Source: Synechococcus sp.
GTDB lineage: Bacteria; Cyanobacteriota; Cyanobacteriia; PCC-6307; Cyanobiaceae
Direction of reading: 5' to 3'
Length of the DNA: 64,000 nt
Assembly (NCBI GenBank): GCA_047285535.1
Contig: JBJBDC010000001.1
Location: 1,728,136 to 1,792,135 of the forward strand
The position numbers were made by a program, and so were the translations under genes. How positions within the stretch are numbered: the stretch's first letter is position 1; the number at the start of each line of letters is the position of its first letter. Of the stretch, positions 1-43,855 are shown piece by piece. The notes beneath the pieces were generated by a model. That model worked only from the letters and a program-made list of their open reading frames with translations, did not search any database and was not told where the DNA came from.

Positions 1-1
1 C

Positions 2-226
2 CATCAAACAAACCTTTTCCCACAAGGGTTGGGGCCACAGAAGCAACCATCAGTCAAAGCAGCAAAAACTGATCCAATTCAAAACGCAAGGCCAAATGAC
101 AGCGAAACAAAAAGAAGTAAGCCCTTACAACTCACGAAAGAAGAAAGTTTTACGCCCAACAGATTCACAACAGAAAAAGAAGTAGGTTTGAGTTTAACGT
201 CTGCACCTTTAGACGGAAGTAATTAG
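2..226 (+). CDS. 3' end of a gene truncated by the window edge (hypothetical)
   Basis: Frame is open from position 2 (HQTNLFPQGLGPQKQ...) to TAG 224-226; hydrophilic, no recognisable motif. Confidence 0.4.
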   Translation, partial: HQTNLFPQGLGPQKQPSVKAAKTDPIQNARPNDSETKRSKPLQLTKEESFTPNRFTTEKEVGLSLTSAPLDGSN

Positions 227-465
227 CGAAGCAATGCGAGGTCTGCTCTACTAATGGTTGTGCTTTCAAAGGCCATGGCAATAATATTTTTCACTCGCTC
301 CTCAGACGAATAACAAAGATCATTAATAAAGTCTCCAATGGCTAGACAAAAAGAATCAGCTGTGTGTTCATCGCTAAAGAGATTGTGGAAGCTGATAATC
401 AGCAATCTCACTTCACCACTGCTAATCCAAGGGTGAAAGCGCCTTAGTTGATTTACACTGTCCAT
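223..465 (-). CDS. hypothetical protein (~80 aa)
   Basis: ORF from ATG 465 (MDSVNQLRRFHPW...); its stop overlaps the convergent gene's stop; no family recognised. Confidence 0.4.
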   Translation of the reverse strand: MDSVNQLRRFHPWISSGEVRLLIISFHNLFSDEHTADSFCLAIGDFINDLCYSSEERVKNIIAMAFESTTISRADLALLR

Positions 466-1170
466 TTGAAAACTACGCAAGTTAACGAAATAAAGCGAAG
501 GTCTACTTGATGTCTTTAATAGGTTGAGTCAAGGTGTACAAAAACACTTTTAATCCCAAACAATCACCCAGGCTTGCTATTGGATTCAAACTGCGTTAAC
601 CGTACAATACAGTCTTGATTTAAGAACACTGGGCTACAGTTGAACCTCATGGACACTAAGGGAAGGATCCCTTGACATCGATCAGAAGAGTCAGCAAGCC
701 CTGCCTAAAAGAGTTGAGCTGCATGGACCATTACATTGTCAGATGGAAATAACGATGTGGGCTTTTCCTACACAATCCAGCAAATAACCGCCTGAGCTGG
801 ACTACAACAAGCCCAAAACAGAGAGTTACTTGATGACGAGCAGTGGAACCTAATGCATCCAACAGATTAACAAACAAGCCTCAAGACAGGATTAAAGTTT
901 TCACCGTTCGGCTTTCCATTCACCGATCTAACAATCACGCATTCGACCTCCATTGGCATGGGTTATCGCTGTGTACTGCACCTAAATCTTTAGAGGCGCT
1001 GTCAATCAACAATCAATCAATTAAGGACCACTAGCCAGAGCAGGACATGAATTCATCCAAGAGGACGCAACGAATCTTTCACATCATCCTTTTTAAATGT
1101 TGACGACTACTGCTGTCATCAACATCATTGTCAGTGGTTGATGAGTAGGCATAGCAAGCGCAAGTCCTTC

Positions 1171-1409
1171 TCACACGTGAGGGAAGTTCGTCAGTTCATC
1201 CCAGTGACCCCAGTGGATCAACCCTTGATCAACGCCTGAAGACTGGAACATCCCATGGAGCTGGGATCACATTCCTCACCTTCAAACACATGGCCTGAGC
1301 AATCGACCATGCATCATCACGCCTCCAGTCATCCTTGACTGCATGCTCGAGGTCTTCTCCGTCTCGGATGATCACGAGGTCACCCGGTCTCAACGCTCAA
1401 GCTAATGAA
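1171..1409 (-). pseudogene. frameshifted DUF3104-family remnant
   Basis: Pieces across shifting minus-strand frames read FISLSV / RPGDLVII...DAWSIAQAM / VFEGEECDP / GMFQSSGVDQGLIHWGHWDELTNF*, colinear with the recalled DUF3104 pattern FLxVxxGDxVIV..WWMAxV..EGGxRDP...FQVADVDxGxIxWVNADxVT. Confidence 0.6.
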
Positions 1410-1479
1410 GGCGTTGATCTTCTCGCTGAGCTCCAAGCCAACGGGAAAGCGCTGCAAGGCAAAATCAGTCAGCAGGATT

Positions 1480-1513
1480 GCAAGAGCAAGAGCAAGAGCA
1501 AGAGCAAGAGCAA
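1480..1513. repeat. hexanucleotide microsatellite (GCAAGA)5 plus GCAA
   Basis: Read directly: g caagag caagag caagag caagag caagag caa. Confidence 0.95.
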
Positions 1514-1560
1514 TGATGAACACGATGACAGGAATCAACACCATTGCAGGACCCTTGCCA

Positions 1561-1860
1561 GCGCTCAACACTCCATGGGCAACACCAAAGCAAACTCCAG
1601 CTGTGACGGGATAGAGAAGACAGCAGCAAAGGCAGCAGCCTGATCCAGCACAAGGTTCTGGCGATCGACAATCAGCTGTTGATCACCGATCACAGCCATG
1701 GGACAGCAACTGCTGTCTACACCACTTGTGAAACAGGGCTTGCGATTCACGGAACGAACAGCGCAAGGGACTTCACCCTGGAAGTGGATCAGATTTGGCG
1801 ATGCCTTTCTGGGTAGTCATGGCACGGATCCGCCACAGCCTTGAAAGGCAGTGTTTCAAG
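1561..1860 (+). pseudogene. frameshifted C-terminal remnant of a phospholipase D-like (HKD; ComA-type) protein
   Basis: 1640-1798 reads LIQHKVLAIDNQLLITDHSHGTATAVYTTCETGLAIHGTNSARDFTLEVDQIW, a gapless match to the recalled cyanobacterial PLD domain LHHKFAVIDNxxVITGSFNWSxxAxxxNDETLLVIxSxxLAxHFTREMDRLW. Flanking frames give NTPWATP upstream and DAFLG / MARIRHSLERQ downstream. Confidence 0.65.
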
Positions 1861-2222
1861 TTCAAGATTTGGGGTGAAATGAAGACAACCGATGAGAACA
1901 ATATTGAGCTTGAGAAGTTAACGAGCTCAAAGGAAGATATGCAATCAGTGCAATAATTCCGATTATCTTGAAAAATTAAATAGTAAGCCTTAGCGTCGCA
2001 GGTGTCACACGTAACACTCGAGATCCATCAAAACACCAACCAGCACAGGTATCCCCTGCAAAGGGAGAGCAATGGATTGGCCCTAAAGCGCAAGACTTGG
2101 GTTGAATACGCAACGTCCGCTCCGAAGCTCTCACTATCAAATCAAACAATCCATGATTGAAGAGTGCGTTTGCCACCTCAGGGTAATCGCATTGGGGAGG
2201 ACAAGGCATTGTCTTCCCCTCC

Positions 2223-2259
2223 AAAAGGAAAGAGAGGGCTAGCGCCCTCTCTCGTTTTT
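2223..2259 (-). terminator. intrinsic terminator of the peroxidase gene (possibly bidirectional)
   Basis: Hairpin AGAGAGGGC-tagc-GCCCTCTCT (2231-2252) with T-rich tails on both strands, ~40 nt after the stop at 2294. Confidence 0.8.
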
Positions 2260-2293
2260 AAAAATAGTCCAGCACTTTTAGGAAATCAATCGG

Positions 2294-5200
2294 CTAGATA
2301 ACAACGAAACCCCCTTGGCCTATTTCAGCATCGTCAATTGACGCTGATGTGTTGTGGGCAAACAGATTGTTTGCCCTCCACGGATTAACCGGAGTTTCCT
2401 CCCAGAGGGTGGCAATATTCGCAAAAGCAGCACCAACACGCTCATAGATTGCATTATTAGGTTCTAAAATATATGGATTACCTGGATCAATATTGGCATT
2501 AATACGCACCTCACCTAGACCTGGTACAAAACCATTTAAGTAATCAACGTTGTTAATGGAATCAGGATCAAATGGTTGTTCTTCGGTATAGATACCTGTA
2601 ATAGCATCTGTTAAAGAAAGTTTTGATTTCTCTTGCTCCAGCTCCAGCTCCTCCGGAGTTTTAGCGTTAAATTTCACTGTGGTCTTAAAGACATCTTCCG
2701 AAAATCCAGAGTCAATGTAGTTACCAGAGGTGGACCTTGTGGAATTTCTGGCGATAACATCTTCCAACGGACTCAAAGTGTGATTCCAAACGCCTCCTCC
2801 GAGACCATCCAAACTGTTGAGGTAATAAGCAGAATCACCATCCTGGAATCGATCAAGCTGCTCCCATACAATCGCACTGGCGAGATCGCCCAGGAGATGA
2901 TCACCTGAAGGCGCTTCAGCCAACATGAAATTCCATACATCAACATTCCCTAAACCATTATTCCCTAATGAAGAGGAGTCCTCCTCAATTTTTGCATTTG
3001 CAGCTTCTACACGAGCTTCAACCGTGTCTCCTGCCAAGGAATCATCGTAGATACCCATGAAGCCTGCTAAAAGCTCATTCTTTTCTTTAAGCGTATTACC
3101 ACGCAATCTTGATCCAAAATCGTTCCAATCCTTAAAGGGCCTTAGAGCCTTATTACCAACAAAACCATAATCCAAGCCAGTATCATCATCAGTACCATAC
3201 ACGCCATCTGGGCCAAGGATTCCATGGGTTACATCACTACCATTCTTTAGATTTAATGGTTTATATCCTGCCAACAAATTGCCCTCAGAATCTACTTGGA
3301 GATCACCATTTTCATCAAGACCAGACAACGACTTCAAGAGATCTTGTGCATTAGCTTGGCCCGTTTCTCTTGTCCTAAGGATATTAGCCGATTTCAGGTC
3401 TAATTTATTAGCAAGTAGATTACTCCTTACTACTTCGGAAACTCTTTCATTAACTTCTGCTGCTGTTACTTGCGTCATTCCATTAATAATGCCTGAGAAA
3501 CCAAAGGACTGGGCGTATTGAGGTGCAAGGAAAAGGTCAAAAAGATCACTACCAACGGTTAACAATTCCTGAATCTGAGAGTGACCATACCTATAACCAC
3601 CATTCGAAAATTCTTCAGCAACGGAAGGATCTACCAAAGGATTGTAACCATCCCACCCATGATCTCCAATTTTGGCGATATCTCCAACAAGCGATGGAGC
3701 GAACTGCTCATAGAGAATTTTCTGGTATGTCATCTCCACCATCCTTCTTGCCATATTGGCAACATCGTCAGTCGTAACACTGTCAAGATCTAAATGATAA
3801 TCTTCATTGAATTCTAGCTTTTCCTCTTGATTATTCTGTAATGCATTAATGGTTGAATTAATCCAATCCACCTGGAAAGAATGTTCTCGAGCCCAGAGTG
3901 TATGGAAGGTGGTTAAGCCTGCATTTTCATTGGCGCGCCAGTCACCACCAACCACATGGGACAGCAAAAGACCAGTTCCCCAATCCTCAGCATTGATTTT
4001 TGGTTGCAAGTTTTCTGACAAATCAATGACGTTGCCATCAAAATCTCTGACTGTTAAATGAGGCATTTCCTCTTTCAAAATAGCAAATGCATCGGCGATA
4101 TTATCGTCATTCTGATCTAATCCACGCATTGCACCTGATGTACGATCAGGTGCAAAGACCCGTGGTGAAATATCACCGATGATTGGATATCCTTCCACAT
4201 CATTAAAGTCAATAAAATTCTCATCTTGCGTAAGCTTGAGCCACAATGGATTTGGCCCAAATCGACCAGTAAAGTATTGATCCTTTGATTCTGCAGCGAA
4301 AATCTTTTTGATACGCTCTGGAGCCACACCATTATTCAGCAATGTGTCTGAATATGTAGGCAGGCTTTGTAATCCATCAGTTCCCACAGCAACCGATGAA
4401 AGCATCTTAGACGTTTTAAGAATATCAGCTGGTTTGGTTCGATCAGCGTCAATGAATAACTGATCCCTTATTGGATCACCGTTTTCATCAACACCTGAAG
4501 AGATTTTGTAATTTTTGATCGTAATACTTTTGCCGTTCTTTTGAACATCTCCCCTAACAATATCCCCAATCTCAACACCATTTGCTTTTTCATTGCGATA
4601 GACATTGCCTAACGGATCCCGATAGACAACAAAATCTCCATCTTCTTCATTATACCGAGCTGATTCCTTCAGGTAATAATTTTGCAGGTCAGTCGCGCCA
4701 TACAATTGATTATTCTGAATCAATGCTTCTGTTCGATTGCGATGAACAATTTTGTTCCGGTTCTCAGCATCTTTCGTGAGTAAAAGCTCTCCTTTAGCTG
4801 TAACACTATTATCGGAATTCACGTTAAACTCATAAAATCCAGCCTCCTTACCACCATTATTTTCTTCGTCAAAATAGGCTACTGTTACTAATTCGCCATC
4901 GTCGTTAACAATATAAAGTTCACCCCTGCCTCCAAGAATTCCTGTTTGTACAGGATTTTCAAATCTATTGGGATCCAATTGGCCTTGAAAATTGCGATTA
5001 AGTGGATCAAATGGATCATTTGGATCGACCTCAGTCGCTAAACCTTGACCAGTTGATGTTCGCGCCAAAAATGACATATTATGATCAGTATATTGACCAA
5101 AAGCCATGTGCAAAATGGAATAATCTAAAGCATTATCGTTAGCAGGAGAAGGCACATCTACACCAAGTATATTACTAATCTTTCTGACATTAGTTAATTC

Positions 5201-6259
5201 ACCAGTTTTTGAGTCAGTTAGAGCATTAAAGGGATCTATGAAAGTAGACACATTATTGACACCATACAAATCTCCTTGATAGCCTTTCGGTCGTCCAACT
5301 TGTTCAACAAGATCACCATCAATTTCAACTTTCCCCCATTCTGCGTCCGAGAGACGAATGAGAGAACTGTCCGATTTACCCCAATTTTCAGAGGCAATAC
5401 CCTGATAATTGGGATCTTCAACATTAAGACCTTTTCCTGTTAAACGACCCCCTTTAAATGTTCTAGATCCAGATCCATCAAAGACAAATTTTCCATCAGG
5501 TGAAGTAACAGGATCTTTAATTGGAGTATCGGGATCTGTATAATCCCCGTATTCGACATAGAAGGGTTTGTCTTGTACGATTTCAATTAATCTTGCAAAC
5601 AATTTCTCCATCCTCGAAGAAATTTTTCCGTCTTCTGGGAAAAATTCACCTAAATCATTGCTATAAATACTGGTACCGAATACCTTTACAGCTGCTTGAC
5701 CTACAAGTGCTGGATCTGTAGTTACTTGATCTTCAGTTTCTGCAGTTGCTTCAGGTTTTTGATATGCTGCAGGTACTATATATGCTTCAAGTGTTTGATC
5801 TCCTGCAGATACTTCATCTGCTTTAAATGTTTGACCGTCTTTAGGTGTTTCAGATGATTCATCTGCATCCTGAGTCTCAATGAATTTTTCATTATTTTTA
5901 AGAAACTTCCGAAGCGCTTTTCGATCTTTTTTATCACTCAAATCAATGTCGGAATTTTCTTCCAAATACGAAAGACCATAAGAATATTGATCTTCAAAAC
6001 CCCACTGAACTAAATACTTGTTGAGTTGTGAATTCTCAAAACTTTCTTTCCCTTTTGTAGACGAAGTTTCTTCCTTGGCGTAGTCCTCAAAGTCGATCGA
6101 CTCGTTTTTAATAACACCTTTTAACCACCTTTTATTTTGCTTGGTCGTTAAATCGAAAGTCCCTAGCTGACTAAGATAAAGACCTACATACTCAAAGTTG
6201 CCCTCAAAACCCCATTTTCCGAGCAGCTTATTCAACAGAATGGTGTTTGAAAATGCCAT
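2294..6259 (-). CDS. large animal-type heme peroxidase (peroxidase-cyclooxygenase superfamily), 1321 aa
   Basis: Motifs in canonical order: FGQYTDHN (distal His393), GDWRANE (Arg775/Glu778), HTLWAREH, YQKILYEQF, YNPLVDPSVAEEF..YRYGHS (proximal His893), DLKSANILRTRETG, VDVWNFMLAE, QLDRFQDGD. Confidence 0.92.
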   Translation of the reverse strand: MAFSNTILLNKLLGKWGFEGNFEYVGLYLSQLGTFDLTTKQNKRWLKGVIKNESIDFEDYAKEETSSTKGKESFENSQLNKYLVQWGFEDQYSYGLSYLEENSDIDLSDKKDRKALRKFLKNNEKFIETQDADESSETPKDGQTFKADEVSAGDQTLEAYIVPAAYQKPEATAETEDQVTTDPALVGQAAVKVFGTSIYSNDLGEFFPEDGKISSRMEKLFARLIEIVQDKPFYVEYGDYTDPDTPIKDPVTSPDGKFVFDGSGSRTFKGGRLTGKGLNVEDPNYQGIASENWGKSDSSLIRLSDAEWGKVEIDGDLVEQVGRPKGYQGDLYGVNNVSTFIDPFNALTDSKTGELTNVRKISNILGVDVPSPANDNALDYSILHMAFGQYTDHNMSFLARTSTGQGLATEVDPNDPFDPLNRNFQGQLDPNRFENPVQTGILGGRGELYIVNDDGELVTVAYFDEENNGGKEAGFYEFNVNSDNSVTAKGELLLTKDAENRNKIVHRNRTEALIQNNQLYGATDLQNYYLKESARYNEEDGDFVVYRDPLGNVYRNEKANGVEIGDIVRGDVQKNGKSITIKNYKISSGVDENGDPIRDQLFIDADRTKPADILKTSKMLSSVAVGTDGLQSLPTYSDTLLNNGVAPERIKKIFAAESKDQYFTGRFGPNPLWLKLTQDENFIDFNDVEGYPIIGDISPRVFAPDRTSGAMRGLDQNDDNIADAFAILKEEMPHLTVRDFDGNVIDLSENLQPKINAEDWGTGLLLSHVVGGDWRANENAGLTTFHTLWAREHSFQVDWINSTINALQNNQEEKLEFNEDYHLDLDSVTTDDVANMARRMVEMTYQKILYEQFAPSLVGDIAKIGDHGWDGYNPLVDPSVAEEFSNGGYRYGHSQIQELLTVGSDLFDLFLAPQYAQSFGFSGIINGMTQVTAAEVNERVSEVVRSNLLANKLDLKSANILRTRETGQANAQDLLKSLSGLDENGDLQVDSEGNLLAGYKPLNLKNGSDVTHGILGPDGVYGTDDDTGLDYGFVGNKALRPFKDWNDFGSRLRGNTLKEKNELLAGFMGIYDDSLAGDTVEARVEAANAKIEEDSSSLGNNGLGNVDVWNFMLAEAPSGDHLLGDLASAIVWEQLDRFQDGDSAYYLNSLDGLGGGVWNHTLSPLEDVIARNSTRSTSGNYIDSGFSEDVFKTTVKFNAKTPEELELEQEKSKLSLTDAITGIYTEEQPFDPDSINNVDYLNGFVPGLGEVRINANIDPGNPYILEPNNAIYERVGAAFANIATLWEETPVNPWRANNLFAHNTSASIDDAEIGQGGFVVI

Positions 6260-6742
6260 GACGATTTTAAAGGAGAATGAAAACGAGAGAATGAAAATCA
6301 GGTGATATTAAAGACAAAAAGGACGCAAACGCAAACAGAGAAATTGCAACCAATCTTGTCGATATAAAAAACTGAATGCAATTAAAAAAATGCATCAGAA
6401 AATCATGCCAAAAGGAAAGAGCATTAAAATCTGAATCCCAATGAAGACTGGGATACACCAATTAAAGCAATTACAAATCGAACATTGCGATGAACGCAAT
6501 CCTCAGAGCTCAATTTATAATTAAACAAATTTGATTTAGTCACAAGCACGTAAACATGCCGTGAGCTCATACATCTTTGTCCTAAAAAATTGCAACCAGC
6601 AATTACTCAGACAGCAAGCAATGATACAAGCCGTACTCAGAAGCTAATCAATAAAATCCTAACAAAAGTTTTAGCCTTCTTGGATAGAAGACACTGAAAA
6701 CATTCAGAATTAAATTGAATAGCGACACACAGCTCAAACGAA

Positions 6743-7032
6743 TGTGCAGGATATGCACAAGCCTCAGACGTTTAACCTGCAGGAGCAAATCAATGGCAAA
6801 ATTTTTTAAGCAAGAGTCAACCTCAGCATGACTCTAAAAGGATGTTCCAATGTTCAATAGGTCAAATCAAAAACAACGCCTTATTTGTTGACCTGGAAAA
6901 GTCAACAGAGTTGCCATCAGTCGGCAAATTCTATCCCTCAAATCCTCAGGAAGGATAACCACTTGCATTAAAAAACAAGTGCTTGGCGTGCCATAAAATG
7001 AACAATTGTGCATCCTATGCACAAGCCTCAGA
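6743..7032. repeat. two dispersed copies of a palindromic motif TGTGCA-N5-TGCACAAGCCTCAGA
   Basis: 6743 tgtgcaggatatgcacaagcctcaga; 7007 tgtgcatcctatgcacaagcctcaga; 17 identical nt, 264 bp apart. Confidence 0.85.
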
Positions 7033-7771
7033 AGTTCAATTCATGCAAAAAATGATTCAACGGCTATTTGGGCATAGGCAGTGAAGTAATTAATGTGTTT
7101 CTAACGTAGCCATGGAGGGTGACCATCGCGGGCAAGACCCCCAGTTATTACCAAATATTTACAATCTCGTAATCTTTGGCCATTGACATGCTTGTCAATG
7201 GTGAAACCGTTCAGAACGCTGAATCGTCACTCTCAATCCATGCACCGATCAGCTCTGCGCTTGTGCTCACAACCAGATCATCAAAGGGTCCAGGTGCATG
7301 GTTTCAGACATGCTCTTCATTCCCTCATCGCAACGGTCCTTGCTAAGCCGCCTTTTTTGCGGAGCTTCCCTCAAGATTCGTCTCCTGATCAAGGTCTTGA
7401 AGAAAGGATGCCTCTCAAAAGCCATGCCTCACGTGACCCTCCACCCCCTTCGGTCCTTCAGAGATTGGAACTTGTTCAGTGGCTGACTCGGCAACAAGCA
7501 GCACAAGTGTTCAGGTGTTGTGATCTTTTGCTCATACCAACAAAGAAGTCTGACTGACACACCCTTCAGCCCTCCTTGCTAGGGCCTCCACGGTTGACAC
7601 CGATCAGATCGAGAAGGGTGCGGGGCCAAGGCTCTCGGCAGAGATGAACTCACTGTTCGCGCGCGAGCAGATCCCTTGCGGAACTGGAAATTGACACGCA
7701 GCCACCTTGGCTAAAAAAACGCATCTCAACAAGCACTGCCTGCACTGCCATTCTCAGGTCAGAATGATGGA

Positions 7772-8182
7772 ATGACTTCTTTGCTGCCCTTTCGGCTATC
7801 GCCACTCCTGCTGGGCTTAGCGATGGCGGCTCCATGCGCTGTTCGCGCGCAATTGAAATACGTGCCTTTCCCTAGCAAAAGTGAATTGAGGTCCCTGCAG
7901 CTGCTCGCCTACGCCTGCTCTAGAGAAAACACTGCTGACAGCTGTGAACGCACGCGTGAGATTGCCAATCCGCTCATGGATCACCCCAGGCTGCCAGCGT
8001 CCTGCAAAGATACGGTCTGGGAGCTGCTTCAAGAGGCCAAAGCGGCCACAACCAATAGCTTTCAACGACGAGACGATATTGATCGCCCAGCCCGCAGGCT
8101 CACCGTCGTGTGCGCCGAACCTGAGCAACCAAAAGAGCAAAACAAACCCCCTTCCGGGCCTCCAACTCCTAGTCAAACGTAA
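7772..8182 (+). CDS. conserved exported hypothetical protein (4 Cys in the mature part)
   Basis: Signal-peptide-like N-terminus ending AVRA; LAYACSREN...C..MDHPRLP..CKD pattern typical of picocyanobacterial core hypotheticals. Confidence 0.8.
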   Translation: MTSLLPFRLSPLLLGLAMAAPCAVRAQLKYVPFPSKSELRSLQLLAYACSRENTADSCERTREIANPLMDHPRLPASCKDTVWELLQEAKAATTNSFQRRDDIDRPARRLTVVCAEPEQPKEQNKPPSGPPTPSQT

Positions 8183-8408
8183 ATTGCTTTCCAGGCATCA
8201 GCCGACTGAGCTCCTGCCTGATTTCCTGCATGAGCTGCGTGCTGATCAGTGGATGCGTCCGAAGCTCATTCACAAGCTCGTGCACATTGGCAGCCGTGAG
8301 CCCTTGGCTTGAAACCATGGTCTCCAATCGCTTCTTAAATGCCAGGAGAACCAGCTTTTGCTCTTCGCTCAAAGGTTGATCACTGGGGTGCCCGATCTTC
8401 ATGACCAT
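8169..8408 (-). CDS. hypothetical helical protein
   Basis: ORF MVMKIGHPSDQPLSEEQ...FTFD; start uncertain (track extends to 8480). Confidence 0.6.
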   Translation of the reverse strand: MVMKIGHPSDQPLSEEQKLVLLAFKKRLETMVSSQGLTAANVHELVNELRTHPLISTQLMQEIRQELSRLMPGKQFTFD

Positions 8409-8512
8409 GGCGGGAGACCTTGCGACGAGATGGGTGAATTTAAGGTAGCTCTGACATTTAGTGTGCCCTAGGGCCATCAAGGCCCCTGATCAGGTTTAGG
8501 TTTTGAGATTGA

Positions 8513-10183
<1,671 letters not shown>

Positions 10184-10200
10184 TGGAACACATGCGTGGG

Positions 10201-10515
10201 TTATCGCTTCGGTGATCCACGCCGAATTCTCTTGGCCTTGGGATGGCGATACACGGGATCCACAGCTTCCTCTTGGAGCTGACGGGTGGTCTCAATCGCA
10301 AATCCAGCAAGTCCTGTGGAGGCAATGACCATTAGATAAAACAATCGCATCCGGCGAACATCGAGCTCAGCGGGAGTGTTTTCAATTAAAACTTTCAAGA
10401 AATAAGCAAGGGCGCAGCCGATCATGAGGCCAACCGCAATCGCAGCCAACACTCTTGAACCGCTGAACGATTGAGTGGGTGATGTCTTCTTGGGGGATGG
10501 TGAATGTGATCCCAT
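10201..10515 (-). CDS. hypothetical two-TM membrane protein
   Basis: Two hydrophobic segments; its ATG overlaps the RND permease stop. Confidence 0.75.
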   Translation of the reverse strand: MGSHSPSPKKTSPTQSFSGSRVLAAIAVGLMIGCALAYFLKVLIENTPAELDVRRMRLFYLMVIASTGLAGFAIETTRQLQEEAVDPVYRHPKAKRIRRGSPKR

Positions 10516-13500
10516 CAGTTCAGTTGCGGATCAGTGGAGGGTTTGGCATCAGCCTGACCAAGCAGTGACTTCATCACCACATAAAAGACGGGAACAACCA
10601 ACGTGGACAGGAAAGTCGCCACTAACAAACCACCAAAGACCACCAAACCAAGAGAAGACTGACTTTGAGCACCGGCGCCAGTGGCCAGCATCAAGGGCAA
10701 AAATCCCGTTAAGGAAGAAATCGCTGTCATCAAAATCGGACGAAGACGAGACTGGGCTGCAAAACGAGCGGCATCGAGAGCTGATGCCCCATCGCCCATC
10801 TTCTGGTTTGCCAGGTCAACAATCAAAATGGCGTTGCCTCCGGCCAGACCGATCAGCATCACCAAACCCACCTGAGCGTAAATATTGAGCACCTGACCAG
10901 CAGCTGCAAGGAACACAAGAGCACCAAGGAGTGCCGTGGGCACCGTGAGCAAGATGATGATCGGATCGGTGTAACTCTCGTATTGAGCGGATAAAACCAG
11001 GAACACAGCCAGAATGCCAAGAGCGAAGATCACCACCGCAAGAGAGCCAGCTTTCACCTCCTCACGGGAGATACCAGTCCAGTCGAAATCAAGATTGGGG
11101 AAATTACCATTGGTGAAGATCGCCTTCATCGCAGTGATCGCCTGACCGGAACTCTTGCCTTCAGCCGGGGAACCCTCAATTTTGATTGAGCGATAGAGGT
11201 TGAAGTGAGGAATCACGCTCGGACCAGTTGTGGGCGTCACCGTGAAGAACTCCGCTAAAGGGATCTGCTCTCCTTTCGCGTTTTTGACGTAGATGGAAGA
11301 GAGCTGTTCGGAGCTGGCTCGACTGGAGTCATCAGACTGCACATAGACCCGACGCACTTTTCCTTCCTGGAAGGTGTCATTGACGTAACTGCCTCCGAAG
11401 TTGATGCTGAAGATCTGCATCGCAGACCCGAAGTCGACGCCGAGGGAAGCCATCTTTTCGCGATCAACCTTGACCTCCACCTGAGGCGCCTCGGGGGTGA
11501 ACAAAGTGCGCACACGACTGAGGAATGGATTGGCGTTACCGGCCTGGACAATCTGCCCAGCAAAACCAAAAAACTGATTGAGGCCAAAGGCACCGCTGCT
11601 CTGGTCCAGCAGCTGGAATTCAAAACCACCCCCAGCGCCGTATCCCGGTATGGCAGGAGGTTCAACGACAAACACCCTGCCGCCATCCACAGCCTTGAGC
11701 AGCTTTTGATTGAGTCTCTCCACAATGGCGGCCATGGTGTGTTCACTGCCCTGGCGCTCATCCCAGTGCTTGGTGCCGAAGAAGAACAAACCCTTATTGG
11801 GGGCATTGCCATCAAGACTGGCTCCGCTGAACAAGGCTGCGGACTGGATGTCGTCTTCGCTGCGCAAAATCTCTGCCACTTGGCGGTTGATCGTGAGAGT
11901 GGTTTCGTTAGACACACCATCGGGAGCTTGCACGACCCCAATCGCATACCCCTGGTCTTCAATCGGAACAAAGCCACCGGGAATGCGAGTAAAGGCAAAA
12001 CCAGTGAGCAAAATGCCTGCGGCCAGGGCTGCCATCACAATGGGTCGCGCCTTGAGCACCTGATCAAGAAGTTTCGAATAACGCTTCTCAAACCCTGCGT
12101 AAAAGCGATTGAAGTGAGTGAAGATCTCCGGAACAAACCAGCCGATACCAAGACCGATCGCCGTAAACAAAATGACAGGGATGAGATTGGTGACTCCAAC
12201 AAGGATCAACCCCACCACAGCACCTCCAACAGCACCAGGCATCCTCAAGGGAATCGATGAGATCTTCATGGCAACGAAACCAATCAAGGCCCCGATCACA
12301 GCGGGAACAAGCACCAGCGCGGCACCATCACCAGCACTCATCAAGCCGTAGGCAAAACCAAGACAAAGACCGGCTGTTGCATATTGCTGCTTACTCAACT
12401 CCTTGGTGTCTCGCTCAAGCAGCAACGCAGCCAGCATTGGCGAAAAGGTGAGAGCGTTGAAGGTGGAGATACCAATAGAGAAGAGGATCGTTGCGGCGAA
12501 CTGCTTATAAATCGTGCCTGTAGCACCAGGGAAAAACAGCACTGGCAGGAACACCGCCATTTTCACCAACGAAGTGGCGATCACGGCGCTGAACAACTCA
12601 TCCATGGTGGCCATGGCCGCTTGAACGGACGTGAGCCCCTCAGCTTTTTTGGCTGACGTGTCTTCAACAACGGTGATGGCATCATCCACCACAAGACCGG
12701 TGGCGAGCACCAGACCAAACAAGGTGAGCTGGTTGAGCGAGAAGCCAAAGACCAAGACCAAAGCAAAGGTTCCAATCAGTGCCACAGGAATGGCGATGGC
12801 CGGGACAAGAGTGGCCTTCCAGTTCTGCAGGAACAGGAAGAGAATGAGCACCACAAGAATCACGGCATCCCGTAGGGAATTGGTCACGCCCTTAATCGAC
12901 TGATTAATAAAGTCAGTCGTGTCGTAGATGACCTGAGTTTCCAACCCAACAGGGAGGGTCTGCTCGAACTTTTCGATCACCTCTTTCACACCATCAGACA
13001 CTTGAATGGCGTTACTACCAGACAACTGATAAACCGCGACACCCACGGAAGGAGTGCCTTTGAGGTCAATCGCGTCAACGCCATAGGCCTCTCCTCCCAA
13101 GCTGACTCGACCGACGTCGCGGAGTTTGATCAGACCACCGTCATCTGTCGTTTTTAAAACAATATTCTCGAACTCCTGCTCAGTCGTCAGACGACCCTGC
13201 AATTGAACAGTGAAGGTAAATTCCTGTCCTTTGGGAGCAGGCGAGCCTCCCACCTTGCCTGCAGGCACCAGACGGTTCTGACTATTGAGCTGATTCACCA
13301 CATCAGCGGAGGTCAGTCCATAGGCAGCGAGCTTGTCCGGATCCAACCAGAGGCGGAACGCCACCTTCCGATTACCAAAATAAGTAACCTCTCCGACCCC
13401 TGGAACACGCTTGATGTTGTCGGTGAGATTCTTGTCTAAATAACCGCTGATTGTCTCAACGCTGTATTCCGTCTTGGAGGGATCGGAATTGACGAAGTTG

Positions 13501-13925
13501 TAGACAAGCAGAATGGAGTTAGAGGCCTTGTTGACGGTGACACCGGCCTTTCTCACCTCCTCAGGCAGCTGAGGCTCCGCCAGGGAAACGCGGTTCTGCA
13601 CGTTCACCTGATTGATATTGCCATCGGTGCCACTGTTGAACGACACAGAGATCGAACTCACCCCATCCGAAGAGCTACTTGAGGTAATGAAATCCATATC
13701 CTCAACACCATTAATCTGCTGTTCGAGCACGGACGTAACACCCTGCTCTACAGAAACAGCATCAGCCCCTACATAGGTGGACTGCACTTTGACTGTCGGA
13801 GGAGCAATATCAGGGAGATTTTCAATCGGCAAAATGGGGATTGAAATCAATCCCACAATCACAATCAGAAGGCTGCAAACGGTACTGAGGACCGGCCGCG
13901 TGATGAAATTATTAGAGGCAGACAT
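10515..13925 (-). CDS. RND efflux transporter permease (HAE1/AcrB family)
   Basis: FITRPV N-terminus, PDIAPPTV, GLVVDDAI, RLRPILMT, LVVPVFY. Confidence 0.96.
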   Translation of the reverse strand: MSASNNFITRPVLSTVCSLLIVIVGLISIPILPIENLPDIAPPTVKVQSTYVGADAVSVEQGVTSVLEQQINGVEDMDFITSSSSSDGVSSISVSFNSGTDGNINQVNVQNRVSLAEPQLPEEVRKAGVTVNKASNSILLVYNFVNSDPSKTEYSVETISGYLDKNLTDNIKRVPGVGEVTYFGNRKVAFRLWLDPDKLAAYGLTSADVVNQLNSQNRLVPAGKVGGSPAPKGQEFTFTVQLQGRLTTEQEFENIVLKTTDDGGLIKLRDVGRVSLGGEAYGVDAIDLKGTPSVGVAVYQLSGSNAIQVSDGVKEVIEKFEQTLPVGLETQVIYDTTDFINQSIKGVTNSLRDAVILVVLILFLFLQNWKATLVPAIAIPVALIGTFALVLVFGFSLNQLTLFGLVLATGLVVDDAITVVEDTSAKKAEGLTSVQAAMATMDELFSAVIATSLVKMAVFLPVLFFPGATGTIYKQFAATILFSIGISTFNALTFSPMLAALLLERDTKELSKQQYATAGLCLGFAYGLMSAGDGAALVLVPAVIGALIGFVAMKISSIPLRMPGAVGGAVVGLILVGVTNLIPVILFTAIGLGIGWFVPEIFTHFNRFYAGFEKRYSKLLDQVLKARPIVMAALAAGILLTGFAFTRIPGGFVPIEDQGYAIGVVQAPDGVSNETTLTINRQVAEILRSEDDIQSAALFSGASLDGNAPNKGLFFFGTKHWDERQGSEHTMAAIVERLNQKLLKAVDGGRVFVVEPPAIPGYGAGGGFEFQLLDQSSGAFGLNQFFGFAGQIVQAGNANPFLSRVRTLFTPEAPQVEVKVDREKMASLGVDFGSAMQIFSINFGGSYVNDTFQEGKVRRVYVQSDDSSRASSEQLSSIYVKNAKGEQIPLAEFFTVTPTTGPSVIPHFNLYRSIKIEGSPAEGKSSGQAITAMKAIFTNGNFPNLDFDWTGISREEVKAGSLAVVIFALGILAVFLVLSAQYESYTDPIIILLTVPTALLGALVFLAAAGQVLNIYAQVGLVMLIGLAGGNAILIVDLANQKMGDGASALDAARFAAQSRLRPILMTAISSLTGFLPLMLATGAGAQSQSSLGLVVFGGLLVATFLSTLVVPVFYVVMKSLLGQADAKPSTDPQLN

Positions 13926-13934
13926 GTCTCAGCC

Positions 13935-15074
13935 TCAATTCTTGGCCGCAGCAGGTTGATCCCCTGCCCGCTGTGTTTTCAGCTGAATCGGCATCCCATG
14001 CTTGAGATTCAGGAGGTTGGTGGTAATGACCTTTTGGTTGAGCTTCAGTCCTTTAGAGACTGGATAGCGATTGTTTTGCAGAACGCCAATGACCACTGGT
14101 GTTTGCAATGCAAAAAGCGTGTTTGCGGGTAATACACCTTTCTTGATACCCAAACTCAGTCGCTCGATATCAGCTTTACCTGGGTTGGCTTTCAACTCAT
14201 CAAAGTTGCCAATGCGAAAGACGAAGCTCTGACCGGAGGTTTGAGTCACCGCGGCAAAGGGAACTGACAATTGCTGGGTCGTTTTCAATTGAACACGGGT
14301 CCTAAGCCTCTGACCACTACGGAGTAGACCATCATTGTTTTCAAACAGTGCTTTCACGAGCAACCCCTGTGTTTGGGGATTCACTTGGGGATCAATCGAC
14401 TCAATTTTGCTAATTGCCAGTGGCTTTGAATGACCTGGTGCAGTCAGAATCACAGGCTGTCCAAGGGCGAGCCGATCTCCATAGACTGAAGGAACTTCAA
14501 CCAGAGCTTCAAGGGTGTTGTTCTGAACAACACTCGTAAATGGCTGATTTTGCTGGACTACATCGCCGACCTTGACTCGTACATTCGCCACTGTGCCGTT
14601 GATCGGCGAACGCAAATTGCTGTAGCTCAACGTGGCCTCGAGGGACTTCACATTTTCAAGAGCCGCGAGGTAGCGCGTTCGATAAGAGTCGCGCTGACGA
14701 AGCGAGGCAGCACCCACTTTGGCTAGATATTCTTCCCTCTGCCAATCGATCTTTGCAGTGGCCGTCTTCGCCCGTTGCTCGGCTAATGCTGCTCGTTGCT
14801 GGGCCTGATCAAGAACGACCAATAACTGACCAGGACTGATCTGATCACCCTGCCTCATATTCAACTGGGTAACTCGACCAGACGTTTGAGCAGCCAACTC
14901 AACCAGCTCATAAGCCTCGAGGGTGCTCACGGTATCGATATCGTCCGTAAAGGGAGCTTCTAGAACCGACGCCTGCTGCACAGGTAGGGCTGGCCTCTTT
15001 TCAGCGGAGCCTCCACAAGCACTCACTGAAATTGCTGTCAACAGCACTGACAGCAATGATCTAAATCGCAGCAC
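13935..15074 (-). CDS. RND efflux periplasmic adaptor (MFP) lipoprotein
   Basis: Lipobox VSAC, SPINGTV..VKVGD lipoyl-like motif, IDPQVNPQT; directly upstream of the permease. Confidence 0.93.
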   Translation of the reverse strand: MLRFRSLLSVLLTAISVSACGGSAEKRPALPVQQASVLEAPFTDDIDTVSTLEAYELVELAAQTSGRVTQLNMRQGDQISPGQLLVVLDQAQQRAALAEQRAKTATAKIDWQREEYLAKVGAASLRQRDSYRTRYLAALENVKSLEATLSYSNLRSPINGTVANVRVKVGDVVQQNQPFTSVVQNNTLEALVEVPSVYGDRLALGQPVILTAPGHSKPLAISKIESIDPQVNPQTQGLLVKALFENNDGLLRSGQRLRTRVQLKTTQQLSVPFAAVTQTSGQSFVFRIGNFDELKANPGKADIERLSLGIKKGVLPANTLFALQTPVVIGVLQNNRYPVSKGLKLNQKVITTNLLNLKHGMPIQLKTQRAGDQPAAAKN

Positions 15075-37915: not shown

Positions 37916-38194
37916 ATGCCACGCAAAAAGCCTGAGACCGCCACGAACTCTGAACAAGAGAACTGGAAAAATGACGCATCCAAGCTCAGTTACGAAGAAG
38001 CTCTACAAGCTCTTGATGTGCTTCTTGGACAGCTTCAAGAGGATTCAACACCCTTGGCAGATCTTCAACGTAGCCATATACGGGCATCAATTTATCTAGA
38101 CAGATGCAACTTCCTTCTCAGTCAAGCTGAGCAATCTGTCATGCAGCTTGATCCAGACACCATGAAAGAAAGAGTCTATGATGGAAACAAATAG
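37916..38194 (+). CDS. xseB: exodeoxyribonuclease VII small subunit
   Basis: LSYEEALQALD..L.QL....L...C..LL.QAEQ; follows xseA. Confidence 0.9.
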   Translation: MPRKKPETATNSEQENWKNDASKLSYEEALQALDVLLGQLQEDSTPLADLQRSHIRASIYLDRCNFLLSQAEQSVMQLDPDTMKERVYDGNK

Positions 38195-38579
38195 GAATCA
38201 ATCACGTCAGTGGCTTTACCTCTTATTGGCTGTACTTGGAGGCATTCTTCCCTGGCAAGCCAATCTGGAGTTCATACAAGCCAATCACAATGTTGGATTC
38301 AACATCATGACTTTCATTCATGATGCCAATATCAATGCAGCATCACGATCTCTCAGCAGGGATCTTTTGATTGCAGCTTCGGCATTCAGCATTTGGATGA
38401 TCTCAGAAGGGAAAAGACTTGAAATCAAAGGTTGGTGGATAACCTTAATCCTGAGCATCAGTATTTCATTTGCTTGCGGAGGTCCACTCTTTCTATTCTT
38501 ACGAGAGCGTAAATTAATTGCACTAAGTCAACAACAAGAGGCAGAAAAACCGCTCAAGGATCAACATCCTCTGCCTTAA
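38178..38579 (+). CDS. DUF2834 family membrane protein
   Basis: YLLLA..G..LPW.AN..F, NAASRS...DL, ISFACG.PLFLFLRE. Confidence 0.85.
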   Translation: MMETNRNQSRQWLYLLLAVLGGILPWQANLEFIQANHNVGFNIMTFIHDANINAASRSLSRDLLIAASAFSIWMISEGKRLEIKGWWITLILSISISFACGGPLFLFLRERKLIALSQQQEAEKPLKDQHPLP

Positions 38580-38904
38580 CGTCAATCGTGACATCACTGG
38601 CACGCAAAGAATCGTCGACAGCCTGAGCCGAATTGTTACCGCTGTGCTTTGGAGGCAACGGAGATCCACACATAGGGCAAGTGTCATCAGCACTCATTGT
38701 GCTGGTGCCGCAAGCATCACAAGTTCTCACTCGGCTCTGTAAGACCTTCCAACCGATCCAGCCCACCCCTCCAAGAATGAAGGGGAGGAACAGAAGGGTC
38801 AAGAGAAGACCACCAGCCAAATCCAACAAGACACGGCCTACAGCTGTTGGCAAAAGCAACAGCCCGAGGAGAACCAACCAAAGGAGCGGAGGAATGCGTC
38901 CCAT
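38554..38904 (-). CDS. membrane protein with zinc-ribbon-like CxxC...CxxC
   Basis: Two TM segments, CDACG and CPMCG, C-terminal VTIDV. Confidence 0.8.
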   Translation of the reverse strand: MGRIPPLLWLVLLGLLLLPTAVGRVLLDLAGGLLLTLLFLPFILGGVGWIGWKVLQSRVRTCDACGTSTMSADDTCPMCGSPLPPKHSGNNSAQAVDDSLRASDVTIDVKAEDVDP

Positions 38905-38955
38905 CAATGAACAGTCCAACCGAACAGCGATCTCATAATCGCCAATTTTCTGCAA

Positions 38956-39888
38956 TTAGTCACGATGAGAGACATTTGGATGATTACTATTTCTTGCATA
39001 AGACTTAGCCAACTCAACACTCCAACATTGACCGAAATAAATCACAACACCCACCATCCAGACCCATAAGGTCAGGACAAGAACACTTCCGATCACTCCA
39101 TAGGCCTGAAAACGAGCTCCCAAAGAAAGAATGCTACGACTAACCGCAAGATTAAGGATGGTCAGGAGAAAACCAATCAATAACGAACCTGGTATTAACG
39201 GCATAAAAGGAACTCTACGGCTCGGAAGAAGCGACTGAAGGAATAAAGCCATGCCCGAAAAACCAAGGAATGGAACCATCAAGGTTCCAAATTGCAAGAC
39301 AGGGATATGAGACAAAAGGCCGCCAAGCCACGGACTAGATGCAGACAACTCACTCAATACAGCGGTGGGGATCATGCGAATATTGGCACTAAGTTGATCA
39401 AGGACAACCAACAACCCTATTAATATCACAACAAAAAAAGCCTCTAACCGGATACGAATAAACTGTGCAGCTTGAAGACGAAAAGTAAGGTCGCAGCGTT
39501 GTGGAGCAATCACATCCTCCCAAAGCCTTTCCGAGCCACGCTGCAATGTTAGATAAACATTGCCGGCAGTGACCAACAAAACGCCAATACCTAGAAGCCC
39601 AGCTCCAAACCTCTGCTGAACCAACTGGATCAATGTTTTTTGTACAATCAACACAGCAGATGGAGGTAAGACACCACTTGCAAAAGCAATGATTTGACGC
39701 TCTAAATCATCCTGACGTCCAAGAAACCACGAGGCAACCGACAAGGAAATCAACAGAATTGGGAAAATCGACTGCAGGGTGTAGTAAGCAAAGGCAGCAC
39801 TCAGATCGACACAATCACACCTCGACCAACGAAGATAAGCACACCAGAGAGATCGAACTAGCCGCCGAAGCGCCAGTTTTTTAGCCAT
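38956..39888 (-). CDS. YihY/virulence factor BrkB family membrane protein
   Basis: SAAFAYYTLQSIFP, YGVIGSVLVLTLWVW...YFG. Confidence 0.9.
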   Translation of the reverse strand: MAKKLALRRLVRSLWCAYLRWSRCDCVDLSAAFAYYTLQSIFPILLISLSVASWFLGRQDDLERQIIAFASGVLPPSAVLIVQKTLIQLVQQRFGAGLLGIGVLLVTAGNVYLTLQRGSERLWEDVIAPQRCDLTFRLQAAQFIRIRLEAFFVVILIGLLVVLDQLSANIRMIPTAVLSELSASSPWLGGLLSHIPVLQFGTLMVPFLGFSGMALFLQSLLPSRRVPFMPLIPGSLLIGFLLTILNLAVSRSILSLGARFQAYGVIGSVLVLTLWVWMVGVVIYFGQCWSVELAKSYARNSNHPNVSHRD

Positions 39889-39936
39889 GGATTCTGATGG
39901 GCCTATAGAGACATAAACTACCGTGCAGCAGGGCAC

Positions 39937-39967
39937 AAAAAAAGCCATCCCTTCAAGGGATGGCTTT
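39937..39967 (-). terminator. rRNA operon terminator
   Basis: A-tract then AAAGCCATCCC-ttcaa-GGGATGGCTTT, just downstream of 5S. Confidence 0.85.
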
Positions 39968-39987
39968 CTTCGTTGAAAATGTTTTTA

Positions 39988-40104
39988 CCTGGCATCGAGC
40001 TATTTTCTCAGGGGGCTACCCCCCAAATATCGTCGCCGCTGCTGCGTTTCACAACCGAGTTCGAGATGGATCGGAGTGGGTCCACAGCGCTATGGACACC
40101 AGGA
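39988..40104 (-). rRNA. rrf: 5S rRNA
   Basis: Reverse complement TCCTGGTGTCCATAGCGC...CCGATCCATCTCGAACTCGGTTGTGAAAC...GATGCCAGG. Confidence 0.96.
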
Positions 40105-43084: not shown

Positions 43085-43514
43085 AATGTATCTCCAACAC
43101 GCTTGCTGTTGTTGAAACAGATTCTTTTAACTTCTAACTTAGAACTTCTAACTTAGAAGTTAAAATCAAACTCTCAAATGCTCGACACATTTGAAAGAAC
43201 GTGATGGAGTCTCGGCTCTTGCTCGTAGAATTAACATCATTCCATCAAGAATTAACCCTCAAGAATGATGCATCTATGAGATGCTTTATTCTTTCCAGAC
43301 TTACTATGCAGTTGTCAAGGTTCGGCTAGACATCAAATCAATGCATTGATCTCTCAATCCATTCATTGAGCCCAGCGTCCTATCAATTAAATCTTGGGTT
43401 CACTCCCATTCTTTAAAATGACAAGAAGCTAGGATCATCTAGCGGACAAATCTAAATCACAATCCATACGAGCTCATACTCCACTCTTGGGAGATGGGGA
43501 TTCATTTCGGTCAG

Positions 43515-43587
43515 TGGAGGTTAGGAGACTCGAACTCCTGACATCCTGCTTGCAAAGCAGGCGCTCTACCAACTGAGCTAAACCCCC
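43515..43587 (-). tRNA. tRNA-Ala(TGC)
   Basis: GGGGGTTTAGCTCAGTTGGTAGAGCGCCTGCTTTGCAAGCAGGATGTCAGGAGTTCGAGTCTCCTAACCTCCA. Confidence 0.97.
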
Positions 43588-43595
43588 AACACCGA

Positions 43596-43669
<74 letters not shown>

Positions 43670-43855
43670 AGGAGTCTCATCCCTTATGGGGTGTGACCTA
43701 GACAAAGTTTAGGAACTAAAGATCTCCACCAAGCCAATCCCTATCTCTAGACATCTCTTGGCTTCAAAATTGAGGTACCGATCGACCTAAGGTGACAGGA
43801 TTTTGGCCTAAGAATCAAGTACTCAGACATCAAAATCGGTTGTTTGTCTCCCTGT

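Follow-up and report, generated by a model that had tools for sequence, protein, structure and literature searches.

The gene at positions 2294..6259 (minus strand) of a 64,000-nucleotide stretch of Synechococcus sp. DNA (positions 1,728,136 to 1,792,135 of contig JBJBDC010000001.1, assembly GCA_047285535.1; the whole stretch is called the window here) encodes a 1321-amino-acid (aa) member of the peroxidase-cyclooxygenase superfamily that belongs to a small and rare subfamily. Alignments indicate that its catalytic set is complete, with a distal Gln-Asp-His, an Arg-x-x-Glu and a proximal His-Asn-Arg triad, and they place the subfamily as a branch among RTX-repeat, secreted-type bacterial peroxidases; the locus is best explained as an intact, horizontally acquired single-gene unit. 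By analogy with characterized relatives we lean, with only a little more confidence than doubt, toward the reading that the product is an exported heme b peroxidase of the lactoperoxidase (LPO) and LspPOX kind that would oxidize I−, SCN− and phenolic donors, and Br− more slowly, and would not oxidize Cl−.

The open reading frame (ORF) of this complete gene (P0001) begins with ATG and predicts a protein of 146 kDa with a pI of 4.4 and no cysteine. The start is backed by the aligned N-termini of homologs P0003, P0004, P0006 and P0007, and further by a fragment (P0162) that is 93% identical over residues 1–130. Pfam family PF03098 (An_peroxidase) scores 121.6 bits (cut-off 25; E 4.7e-35) over three stretches separated by insertions, which agrees with the assignment made in a sequence-only reading of this DNA. 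No other Pfam family was found in the protein at E ≤ 0.1 (a vanadium haloperoxidase was rejected on this ground), and the only NCBIfam match had an E of 0.099 and 11.8 bits against a cut-off of 450.

The heme pocket residues were located by motif scan and by alignment with CyanoPOX, and their conservation was counted in a 98-row alignment of the window protein, 25 further family members and an outgroup of 72 other bacterial An_peroxidase proteins (those of no more than ~1300 aa among the best 150 matches). Motif Q389-Y-T-D392-H393 (5081..5095; all features of the gene are on the minus strand) holds the distal Gln, an ester-forming Asp and the distal His, each present in all 23 family rows that cover the motif. 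The catalytic Arg and the ester-forming Glu lie in R775-A-N-E778 (3926..3937), where the positions of R775 and E778 are kept in 26/26 family and 72/72 outgroup rows. On the proximal side, R890-Y-G-H893 (3581..3592) has a propionate Arg and the proximal His, both invariant in 98/98 rows, and N959-I-L-R962-T-R964 (3368..3385) has the Asn that would hydrogen-bond the proximal His and a propionate Arg (N959 position in 26/26 family rows, R962 position in all 98). All of the residues that the sequence-only reading had listed were therefore recovered by script at the coordinates of the motifs.

Among Protein Data Bank (PDB) sequences, phmmer ranks 8S6C first (E 6e-16, 60.5 bits), with myeloperoxidase (MPO) at 3.5e-4 and DdPoxA at 1e-3 (19.9 bits). 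8S6C is CyanoPOX of Cyanobacterium sp. TDX16, whose pocket residues are described as crystallographically defined (PMC11776367). In the alignment to it D392, H393 and N394 correspond to Asp80, His81 and Asp82, R775 and E778 to Arg199 and Glu202, R890 and H893 to Arg291 and His294, and N959 and R962 to Asn376 and Arg379. The named residues are thus predicted to fall within a heme pocket and not outside one. An AlphaFold2 model of residues 186–1321, made with the 98-row alignment as input, has a mean predicted local distance difference test value (pLDDT) of 85 and a predicted template modelling score (pTM) of 0.90, and the blocks that hold the pocket residues reach pLDDT 93–96. The model is assigned the mainly alpha-helical peroxidase fold, and Foldseek matches it to PDB structures with probability 1.00: 8s6c (E 2.4e-20, TMt 0.74), DdPoxA (6erc; TMt 0.78) and MPO and LPO (TMt 0.63–0.72), with dual oxidase (DUOX) next, while alpha-dioxygenase (alpha-DOX; E 4.5e-10 to 5.3e-9, TMt 0.56–0.60) and cyclooxygenase-2 (COX-2; TMt 0.41–0.43) score lower. 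Profile-to-PDB scores are 627 bits for CyanoPOX, 135 for alpha-DOX and 97 for COX-2, the last two over partial stretches. The protein is thus placed by fold and by profile score with peroxidases and not with the cyclooxygenase and dioxygenase clades.

The subfamily is sparsely represented. A word-index search gave 12 proteins with E ≤ 1e-3 among 8000 scored candidates, including the query itself; seven of the others are 58–76% identical to it, one is 29% identical, and the remaining three are proteins of 1886–1903 aa with CWB2, RTX and peroxidase domains. An exhaustive phmmer search of 1.84 billion cluster representatives gave 1958 matches at E ≤ 1e-3, of which only five (P0006 and P0013–P0016) had E ≤ 1.6e-85, followed by a gap to 2.2e-44. 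A scan of one genome for each of 185,579 species with two peptide patterns gave 13 loci among 76 pattern matches, all 13 being 32–35% identical to the window protein; the window's own genome and the 58–83% identical relatives are either absent from this species-representative collection or were missed by the patterns. Eleven of the 13 loci are titled Cyanobium, Synechococcus, Synechococcaceae, Prochlorococcaceae or cyanobacterium. The other two are metagenome-assembled genomes (MAGs) titled Bifidobacterium breve and Asaia bogorensis (L004, CALPNT020000097.1, and L006, CALRQW020000002.1, respectively); their family members have a GC content of 0.58–0.61 and nest among cyanobacterial sequences in the tree, and the titles look discordant with a gene that is otherwise cyanobacterial in its distribution. 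A search of openly readable literature found no paper describing the subfamily and, among the papers listed, none on a heme haloperoxidase in Synechococcus.

In a FastTree phylogeny (98 rows, 554 columns) the 26 family rows lie on one side of a single branch with local support 96. IQ-TREE in its quick mode (LG+C20; 87 rows and 530 columns after 11 near-duplicate or partial family rows, P0005, P0007, P0008, P0013, P0016, L003, L005, L009, L010, L011 and L013, were dropped) gave the family an SH-aLRT value of 100 and a stem of 0.58, and placed it inside a group (SH-aLRT 97) with eight other sequences, seven of which are RTX-positive; FastTree agrees. Both trees are midpoint-rooted only and have unnamed database proteins as the outgroup. 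The best non-family relative found by phmmer is likewise an RTX-type protein, P0021 (155 bits as compared with 60.5 for CyanoPOX). Pfam found RTX (HemolysinCabind) repeats in 12 of 14 scanned outgroup proteins and only PF03098 in 6/6 scanned family members. The phylogeny that the sequence-only reading had proposed as a check, here with unnamed bacterial references, and the phmmer scores thus point to RTX-repeat peroxidases of peroxicin-like architecture as the nearest relatives and not to the short CyanoPOX type.

In the window protein, judging from the alignments, the two acidic residues that would bind the distal Ca2+ are both replaced. Its remnant of the Ca2+ loop, N508-R-T-E-A-L-I-Q515-N-N-Q-L-Y-G521 (4697..4738), has Q515 in place of a conserved Asp; this column is Q in 24/24 family rows, D in 67/72 outgroup rows and Q in 0/72 outgroup rows. 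In the profile-to-PDB alignment the loop pattern N-x-T-x-x-x-I-D-x-S-x-x-Y-G aligns with NQITSWIDASNVYGS of CyanoPOX, where Thr140, Trp142, Asp144 and Ser146 are given as Ca2+ ligands (PMC11776367), and Q515 is in the column of Asp144. The residue after the distal His, in the column of CyanoPOX Asp82, is N394 here; across the alignment this position is N in 7 and G in 16 family rows, and D in 32 and G in 26 outgroup rows. These replacements, together with N779 at the position of the MPO sulfonium Met (N in 26/26 family rows, with E-M there in the aligned MPO chain), make the earlier description of the protein as myeloperoxidase-like overstated, even though the fold is the same.

The segment from distal His to distal Arg is greatly enlarged, with 381 residues here and a family median of 352 (23 rows, range 328–507), as compared with medians of 178 for the RTX-bearing relatives (21 rows) and 131.5 for the rest (40 rows), and so is ~200 aa longer than in the RTX relatives. 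Spacing counts and the model divide the added sequence into two parts. Insertion 1 (residues ~400–505, 4745..5062) is beta-rich and lies between the distal His and the Ca2+-loop motif, a spacing of 114 residues here and a median of 52–54 in the outgroups; its pLDDT is mostly >90. Three low-GC-clade homologs (P0003, P0004 and P0005) have ~100 aa more inside it (columns ~550–690 of alignment A1) and a His-to-Asn508 spacing of 222–228, and the insertion 1 site therefore tolerates repeated expansion. Insertion 2 (residues ~530–760, 3980..4672), beta-then-alpha in the model, precedes the distal Arg; from G521 to R775 there are 253 residues, where the RTX relatives have a median of 115 and the others one of 57.5. 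The His-to-Arg insert modelled by itself (residues 395–770, 25-row alignment A3) gave a pLDDT of 55.6 and a pTM of 0.30; it is confident only within the whole-protein model and collapses alone, and we rejected the idea that it is an autonomous domain.

The canonical peroxidase domain begins at about residue 262 in the profile-to-8S6C alignment, and three regions lie ahead of it. The N-terminal module (residues 1–130, 5870..6259) is built from a ~45-aa unit that occurs twice, L-x-x-W-G-F ... D-L-x-x-K-x-x-R-K-x-L, and is common to the low-GC-clade homologs P0003, P0004, P0006 and P0007. It has no Pfam or NCBIfam match; a word-index search for it in shorter proteins (150 candidates) gave two matches, both fragments of the same gene family, and its best score in the ESM Atlas was 0.81, below the 0.9 level, with An_peroxidase clusters as the matches. 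An acidic low-complexity linker (residues 131–185, 5705..5869), whose length varies among the homologs in alignment A1, leads to an N-terminal extension (residues ~186–261, 5476..5704) that is conserved in the family and in which pLDDT climbs to ~85–91 from model residue 31. Beyond the peroxidase fold is a C-terminal tail (residues 1181–1321, 2297..2719), mostly of low pLDDT and with no Pfam or NCBIfam match, that ends in a motif, W-x-x-x-x-x-[DN]-P-W-[AR]-x-N plus a short hydrophobic end, conserved in both clades; this tail is a candidate uncleaved export signal. The absence of cysteine in 1321 residues compares with 15 expected (Cys is 1.16% in 28 other window proteins) and is shared by 19/26 family rows and 18/25 RTX relatives. 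The protein lacks a transmembrane segment (its highest Kyte-Doolittle value over 19 residues is 0.82) and a Sec-like N-terminus; relatives from high-GC genomes have N-terminal stretches rich in Ala, Pro, Ser and Thr.

The gene stands alone in DNA of unusual composition, as had been noticed from the letters. Its GC content is 0.402 and its third-codon-position GC (GC3) 0.311, as compared with a GC3 of 0.386–0.623 in eight other window genes and a background GC of 0.531 at 8001–64000. In a 500-nt profile GC is 0.35–0.45 throughout ~2250 to 7150, and positions 1 to ~1000 are likewise GC-poor (0.41–0.44), so that the anomalous segment may continue past the window start. Only short ORFs lie in the ~900 bp upstream (6260–7180; none credible) and in the ~2.3 kb downstream (1–2290), with no family match in either. 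The terminator that the earlier reading had assigned to the gene is also there: a terminator-like hairpin at 2230..2253 (assigned to the minus strand; the hairpin itself forms on both strands), found by hairpin scan and by folding of 2215–2300, lies ~40 nt past the stop codon; its stem is 10 bp long, 6 of the pairs being GC, and is followed by the U-rich tail UCCUUUUGG. The 86-nt stretch that contains it (2215–2300) folds at −28.6 kcal/mol (z −2.16 relative to shuffles).

As a compositional outlier in GC3 the gene is consistent with the acquisition that the sequence-only reading had proposed, as is the finding of relatives no closer than 32–35% identity in the species-representative scan. At the high-GC MAG loci the GC of the gene (0.58–0.67) is close to that of its flanks (0.54–0.70), while the window gene, at 0.40, stands out from its 0.53 background. 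This contrast fits a recent import of a low-GC-clade gene. The marks of an island other than composition were not found, namely a tRNA, an integrase or a flanking direct repeat (the repeats found by scan were all short families of two copies). As to a source, tblastn gave no match in 50,697 phage records, and plasmids gave only distant matches (32 records, from alphaproteobacteria and others, 25–28% identical over at most a third of the query).

In three of the six relative loci with >1 kb of downstream DNA, a ~1460-aa CueO-like multicopper oxidase (MCO) with RTX repeats lies directly downstream of the peroxidase homolog on the same strand (L007:12676-17073, L010:12726-17078 and L011:6365-10744), and the two enzymes may form a secreted oxidase pair there. 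These three loci are near-identical and from one subclade, so the linkage counts as one event. They are MAGs of Synechococcaceae/Prochlorococcaceae type, and each has chorismate synthase upstream. In the window no MCO gene was found beside the peroxidase gene or, by NCBIfam, among 36 further ORFs. An ABC exporter upstream of the L006 homolog was considered as a type I secretion component and rejected, as it is MsbA-like and below every curated cut-off.

What can the pocket residues say about substrate? According to PMC5787809, I− and SCN− are oxidized fast by all superfamily peroxidases, Br− oxidation has been shown with EPO, LspPOX and peroxidasin (hsPxd01), all of which have two esters, and Cl− is oxidized at reasonable rates by MPO alone, via its sulfonium link. 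With two ester residues and no MPO-type Met, the window protein would be expected to be LPO/LspPOX-like and not MPO-like. In the proposed mechanism the protein would be exported without a Sec signal, as type-I-secreted relatives are, and would act at the cell surface or outside the cell; we infer such export because the protein is acidic and Cys-free, has no transmembrane segment, has a conserved C-terminal tail and comes from an RTX-type secreted lineage. H2O2 would turn the ferric heme into compound I, and exposure to it may also cause Asp392 and Glu778 to become esterified autocatalytically to heme methyls, as in LPO and LspPOX. Compound I would then react fast with I− and SCN−, more slowly with Br− and not with Cl−, and would also accept electrons one at a time from phenolic donors. 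With its enlarged His-Arg segment and without the acidic Ca2+ ligands, the enzyme probably has a differently shaped substrate channel, and its specificity may therefore depart from that of known enzymes.

Several points weigh against this reading. The Asp/Glu pair would permit a two-ester heme and, as far as alignments can tell, is not diagnostic of halogenation, because it is near-universal in the bacterial relatives (ester Asp in 60 of 62 site-covering outgroup rows, ester Glu in all 72; 23/23 and 26/26, respectively, in the family) and is also reported to be conserved in the Mn-oxidizing MopA, which keeps both of the residues that link the heme in LPO (PMC6247904); with both residues shared by MopA, sequence cannot separate halide, Mn and generic peroxidase roles. 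CyanoPOX is described as having both ester residues and yet a non-covalent heme as purified (PMC11776367), so the pair is necessary and not sufficient for covalent heme. The pocket geometry of the window protein is itself taken from alignments. The distal Ca2+ site is called essential for LPO activity in the introduction of PMC11776367, and with its ligands lost the pocket may act differently or the enzyme be less active. As to export, the protein has no PF00353 match and no GGxGxD motif, no type I secretion genes adjoin its gene (the HlyD-family gene nearby pairs with AcrB, and is thus part of an RND pump), and no recognised export signal was found in it. Finally, halide oxidation would depend on the halide supply in whatever habitat the host has. 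The earlier proposal of a haloperoxidase therefore holds in part: the protein is a genuine superfamily peroxidase that is closer in its model to halogenating peroxidases (TMt 0.63–0.78) than to alpha-DOX or COX-2, and the two residues on which the halide claim was built do not decide it.

Other roles for the same protein have to be weighed against these facts. A surface enzyme for H2O2 scavenging (autoprotection of the PehA kind) or for cross-linking of tyrosines and phenolics in the cell surface or in exopolymers, with halides not the physiological substrate, is unlikely in our estimate, although it has precedents. PehA, an island-encoded, RTX-type heme peroxidase exported by a type I system, is reported to stay on the cell surface and to improve fitness under oxidative stress (PMC9518985); the window gene is also island-like and of a secretion-type lineage, CyanoPOX is said to convert aromatic compounds readily (PMC11776367), and one may speculate that the N-terminal repeat module and the large inserts bind a polymer. 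However, no binding domain was recognised with Pfam, NCBIfam or the Atlas, and no genes for a target polymer are adjacent. Such a role is moreover compatible with halide oxidation; peroxidasin, for example, cross-links via HOBr. An extracellular oxidase like MopA, which would take Mn(II) to Mn(III) or make superoxide that does so, and thus serve Mn-oxide formation or reactive-oxygen cycling and not halogenation, seems to us distinctly unlikely. The nearest non-family relatives share the peroxidase-plus-RTX architecture of MopA, a likeness judged from the published description of that enzyme, which also credits MopA with the LPO ester Asp and Glu and with many insertions near the Ca2+ site (PMC6247904); and MCOs and heme peroxidases such as MopA are named as the two known classes of bacterial Mn oxidase (PMC13689576, PMC6247904), so the RTX-type MCO that follows the homolog in three of six relative loci would suit this role. 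Against it are the single event to which those three loci reduce, the lack of an MCO in the window (above), and a protein that has no RTX or Ca2+-binding domain and has lost the acidic Ca2+ ligands, while MopA activity is reported to need Ca2+ (PMC6247904).

A decaying, non-functional passenger of an island would account for the atypical composition, the absence of linked genes and the loss of conserved Ca2+ ligands, but we find it very improbable: all 3966 nt form one uninterrupted frame, the fold is modelled with high confidence, and the catalytic residues are invariant in 23–26 members although identity between the family clades is only 31–38%. The fixation of Q515 in 24/24 rows likewise indicates a remodelled site rather than a decaying one. 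Least probable of all is a fatty-acid dioxygenase or cyclooxygenase-type enzyme of oxylipin synthesis. It would belong to the same superfamily, and alpha-DOX and COX-2 do occur among the Foldseek and profile matches, but both are far behind the peroxidases (E 2.4e-20, TMt 0.74–0.78; 627 profile bits for CyanoPOX) in the values given above, their profile matches are to partial stretches, and the protein carries the distal Arg-x-x-Glu and Asp-His that belong to the peroxidase branch, which do not vary in the family; we rejected this reading on those grounds. Returning to the exported peroxidase that we favour, a more ambitious version of it would have the subfamily turn an RTX-type secreted peroxidase into a Ca2+-site-less, Cys-free, insertion-remodelled extracellular heme haloperoxidase that moves between lineages as a single-gene island; we offer this version tentatively and think it unlikely. 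Its MCO-linked form in Cyanobium-type genomes would instead be a two-enzyme extracellular oxidative system for Mn or phenolics.

Among known enzymes CyanoPOX is the best solved-structure match both by sequence and by Foldseek E-value, is also cyanobacterial and has the same pocket residues; iodide is given as its best substrate (PMC11776367). It is a much smaller protein (528–556 aa, with ~118 residues from distal His to Arg, as compared with 1321 aa and 381 residues), it binds the distal Ca2+ via Asp82 and Asp144 where the window protein has N394 and Q515, and it lacks the N-terminal repeat module and C-terminal tail. LspPOX of Lyngbya sp. PCC 8106 (Family 6, the ‘peroxidockerins’, whose long forms have a dockerin-type module), for which Br− oxidation and autocatalytic heme linkage are reported (PMC5787809, PMC4420034), is similar in being cyanobacterial and capable of two esters; the window protein differs in having RTX-bearing nearest relatives and in showing only PF03098 in Pfam. 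Another Family 6 enzyme, DdPoxA, is close in fold (TMt 0.78) and distant in sequence (19.9 bits), and the tree contains no named Family 6 sequence.

The peroxicins (Family 5; PehA of Pseudomonas putida and MopA of Erythrobacter/Aurantimonas) resemble the window protein in its RTX-type neighbours and in its acidic, Cys-free composition. These neighbours appear peroxicin-like by architecture as that is described in PMC4420034, and are set beside PehA and MopA by description; MopA, for example, is described as an N-terminal peroxidase domain followed by a C-terminal Ca2+-binding domain (PMC6247904). Their His-to-Arg expansion is intermediate, 181–257 residues in the seven nearest that have a spacing value, and the window protein departs from RTX-type peroxicins in having no RTX, a single peroxidase domain and ~100–200 aa more insertion. 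LPO and MPO (Family 1) share the fold, the distal and proximal residues and the two ester-forming residues; in contrast, the window protein is only ~13% identical to them in structural alignment, has N779 and not Met, has changed Ca2+ ligands, has no cysteines and hence no disulfides, and is bacterial with no signal peptide. LspPOX, CyanoPOX, PehA and MopA are thus known already, and what is new is a distinct, rare subfamily with an architecture of its own.

Few phototrophs are as abundant as picocyanobacteria, which release extracellular reactive oxygen species and are also harmed by them. A secreted heme peroxidase that only some strains carry would make the handling of H2O2, halogen chemistry (the redox state of iodine and the volatile bromocarbons and iodocarbons) or Mn oxidation in the water column differ from strain to strain. 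A vanadium bromoperoxidase has been reported in a few marine Synechococcus strains, where H2O2-dependent halide oxidation is carried out by an unrelated family with a different cofactor. The window protein, if a haloperoxidase, would be its heme-based counterpart, a vanadium-independent route from photochemical or biological H2O2 to HOBr, HOI or HOSCN, and would affect organohalogen emission (e.g. bromoform), iodine speciation or defence against grazers and competing bacteria. Should it prove to be a generic peroxidase, a well-known superfamily would simply have gained another accessory-island gene. In either case the subfamily is a natural experiment in which all catalytic and ester residues are kept, the acidic distal Ca2+ ligands are replaced and ~200–250 residues are added around the substrate channel, and its lack of cysteine may ease recombinant production.

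The AT-rich, non-coding region upstream of the gene (6260..7180, minus strand; GC 0.35–0.42, ~900 bp by GC profile and by ORF and repeat scans) is its presumed promoter and leader. Rfam gave no match at E ≤ 0.1 in 1–9000, and thus no known riboswitch or small RNA in this long leader, nor was a sigma-70-like site predicted for the minus strand of 6260–7180. A 39-nt hairpin repeat is present in the leader in two copies, 6737–6775 and 7001–7039, that are 82% identical; on the strand of the gene it reads CTGAGG, then a hairpin with a 6-bp stem, TGTGCA-N5-TGCACA, with a loop that differs between the copies. A third CTGAGG-plus-hairpin lies at ~6484–6510 (hairpin 6484–6500). The rest of the 64-kb window holds no copy of the repeat pattern (0 expected), and these hairpins may be a regulatory or terminator-like element.

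The flanking genes are ordinary (phosphoglucomutase, the AcrB/HlyD-family RND pair and an MgsA-type ATPase), and other window genes are cyanobacterial in character: PsbU, a TIGR03279 cyanobacterial Fe-S/radical-SAM protein and an HhoA/HhoB/HtrA protease. Where the low-GC segment gives way to DNA of normal GC there is a 136-aa ORF with no family match (7772–8182, plus strand), whose N-terminus resembles a signal peptide in having a hydrophobic core and an A-x-A-type site. The 2.3 kb that follow the peroxidase gene are poor in genes and hold a (GAGCAA)n hexanucleotide run at 1484–1513, which on the minus strand reads (Ala-Leu)n within a 63-aa hydrophobic ORF (1380–1571, minus strand) that has no family match. 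The only tRNAs in the window are tRNA-Ile(GAT) and tRNA-Ala(TGC), 7 nt apart at 43,514–43,670 (minus strand), an arrangement that suggests the spacer of an rRNA operon. A TolC-family outer-membrane channel gene (46748–48487, minus strand) has a GC3 of 0.386, low relative to its neighbours, and its product is a possible outer-membrane exit for the RND pump (10515–15074) or for a type I system. A second dip in GC (0.461) occurs at 38001–40000, adjoining a YihY-family gene.

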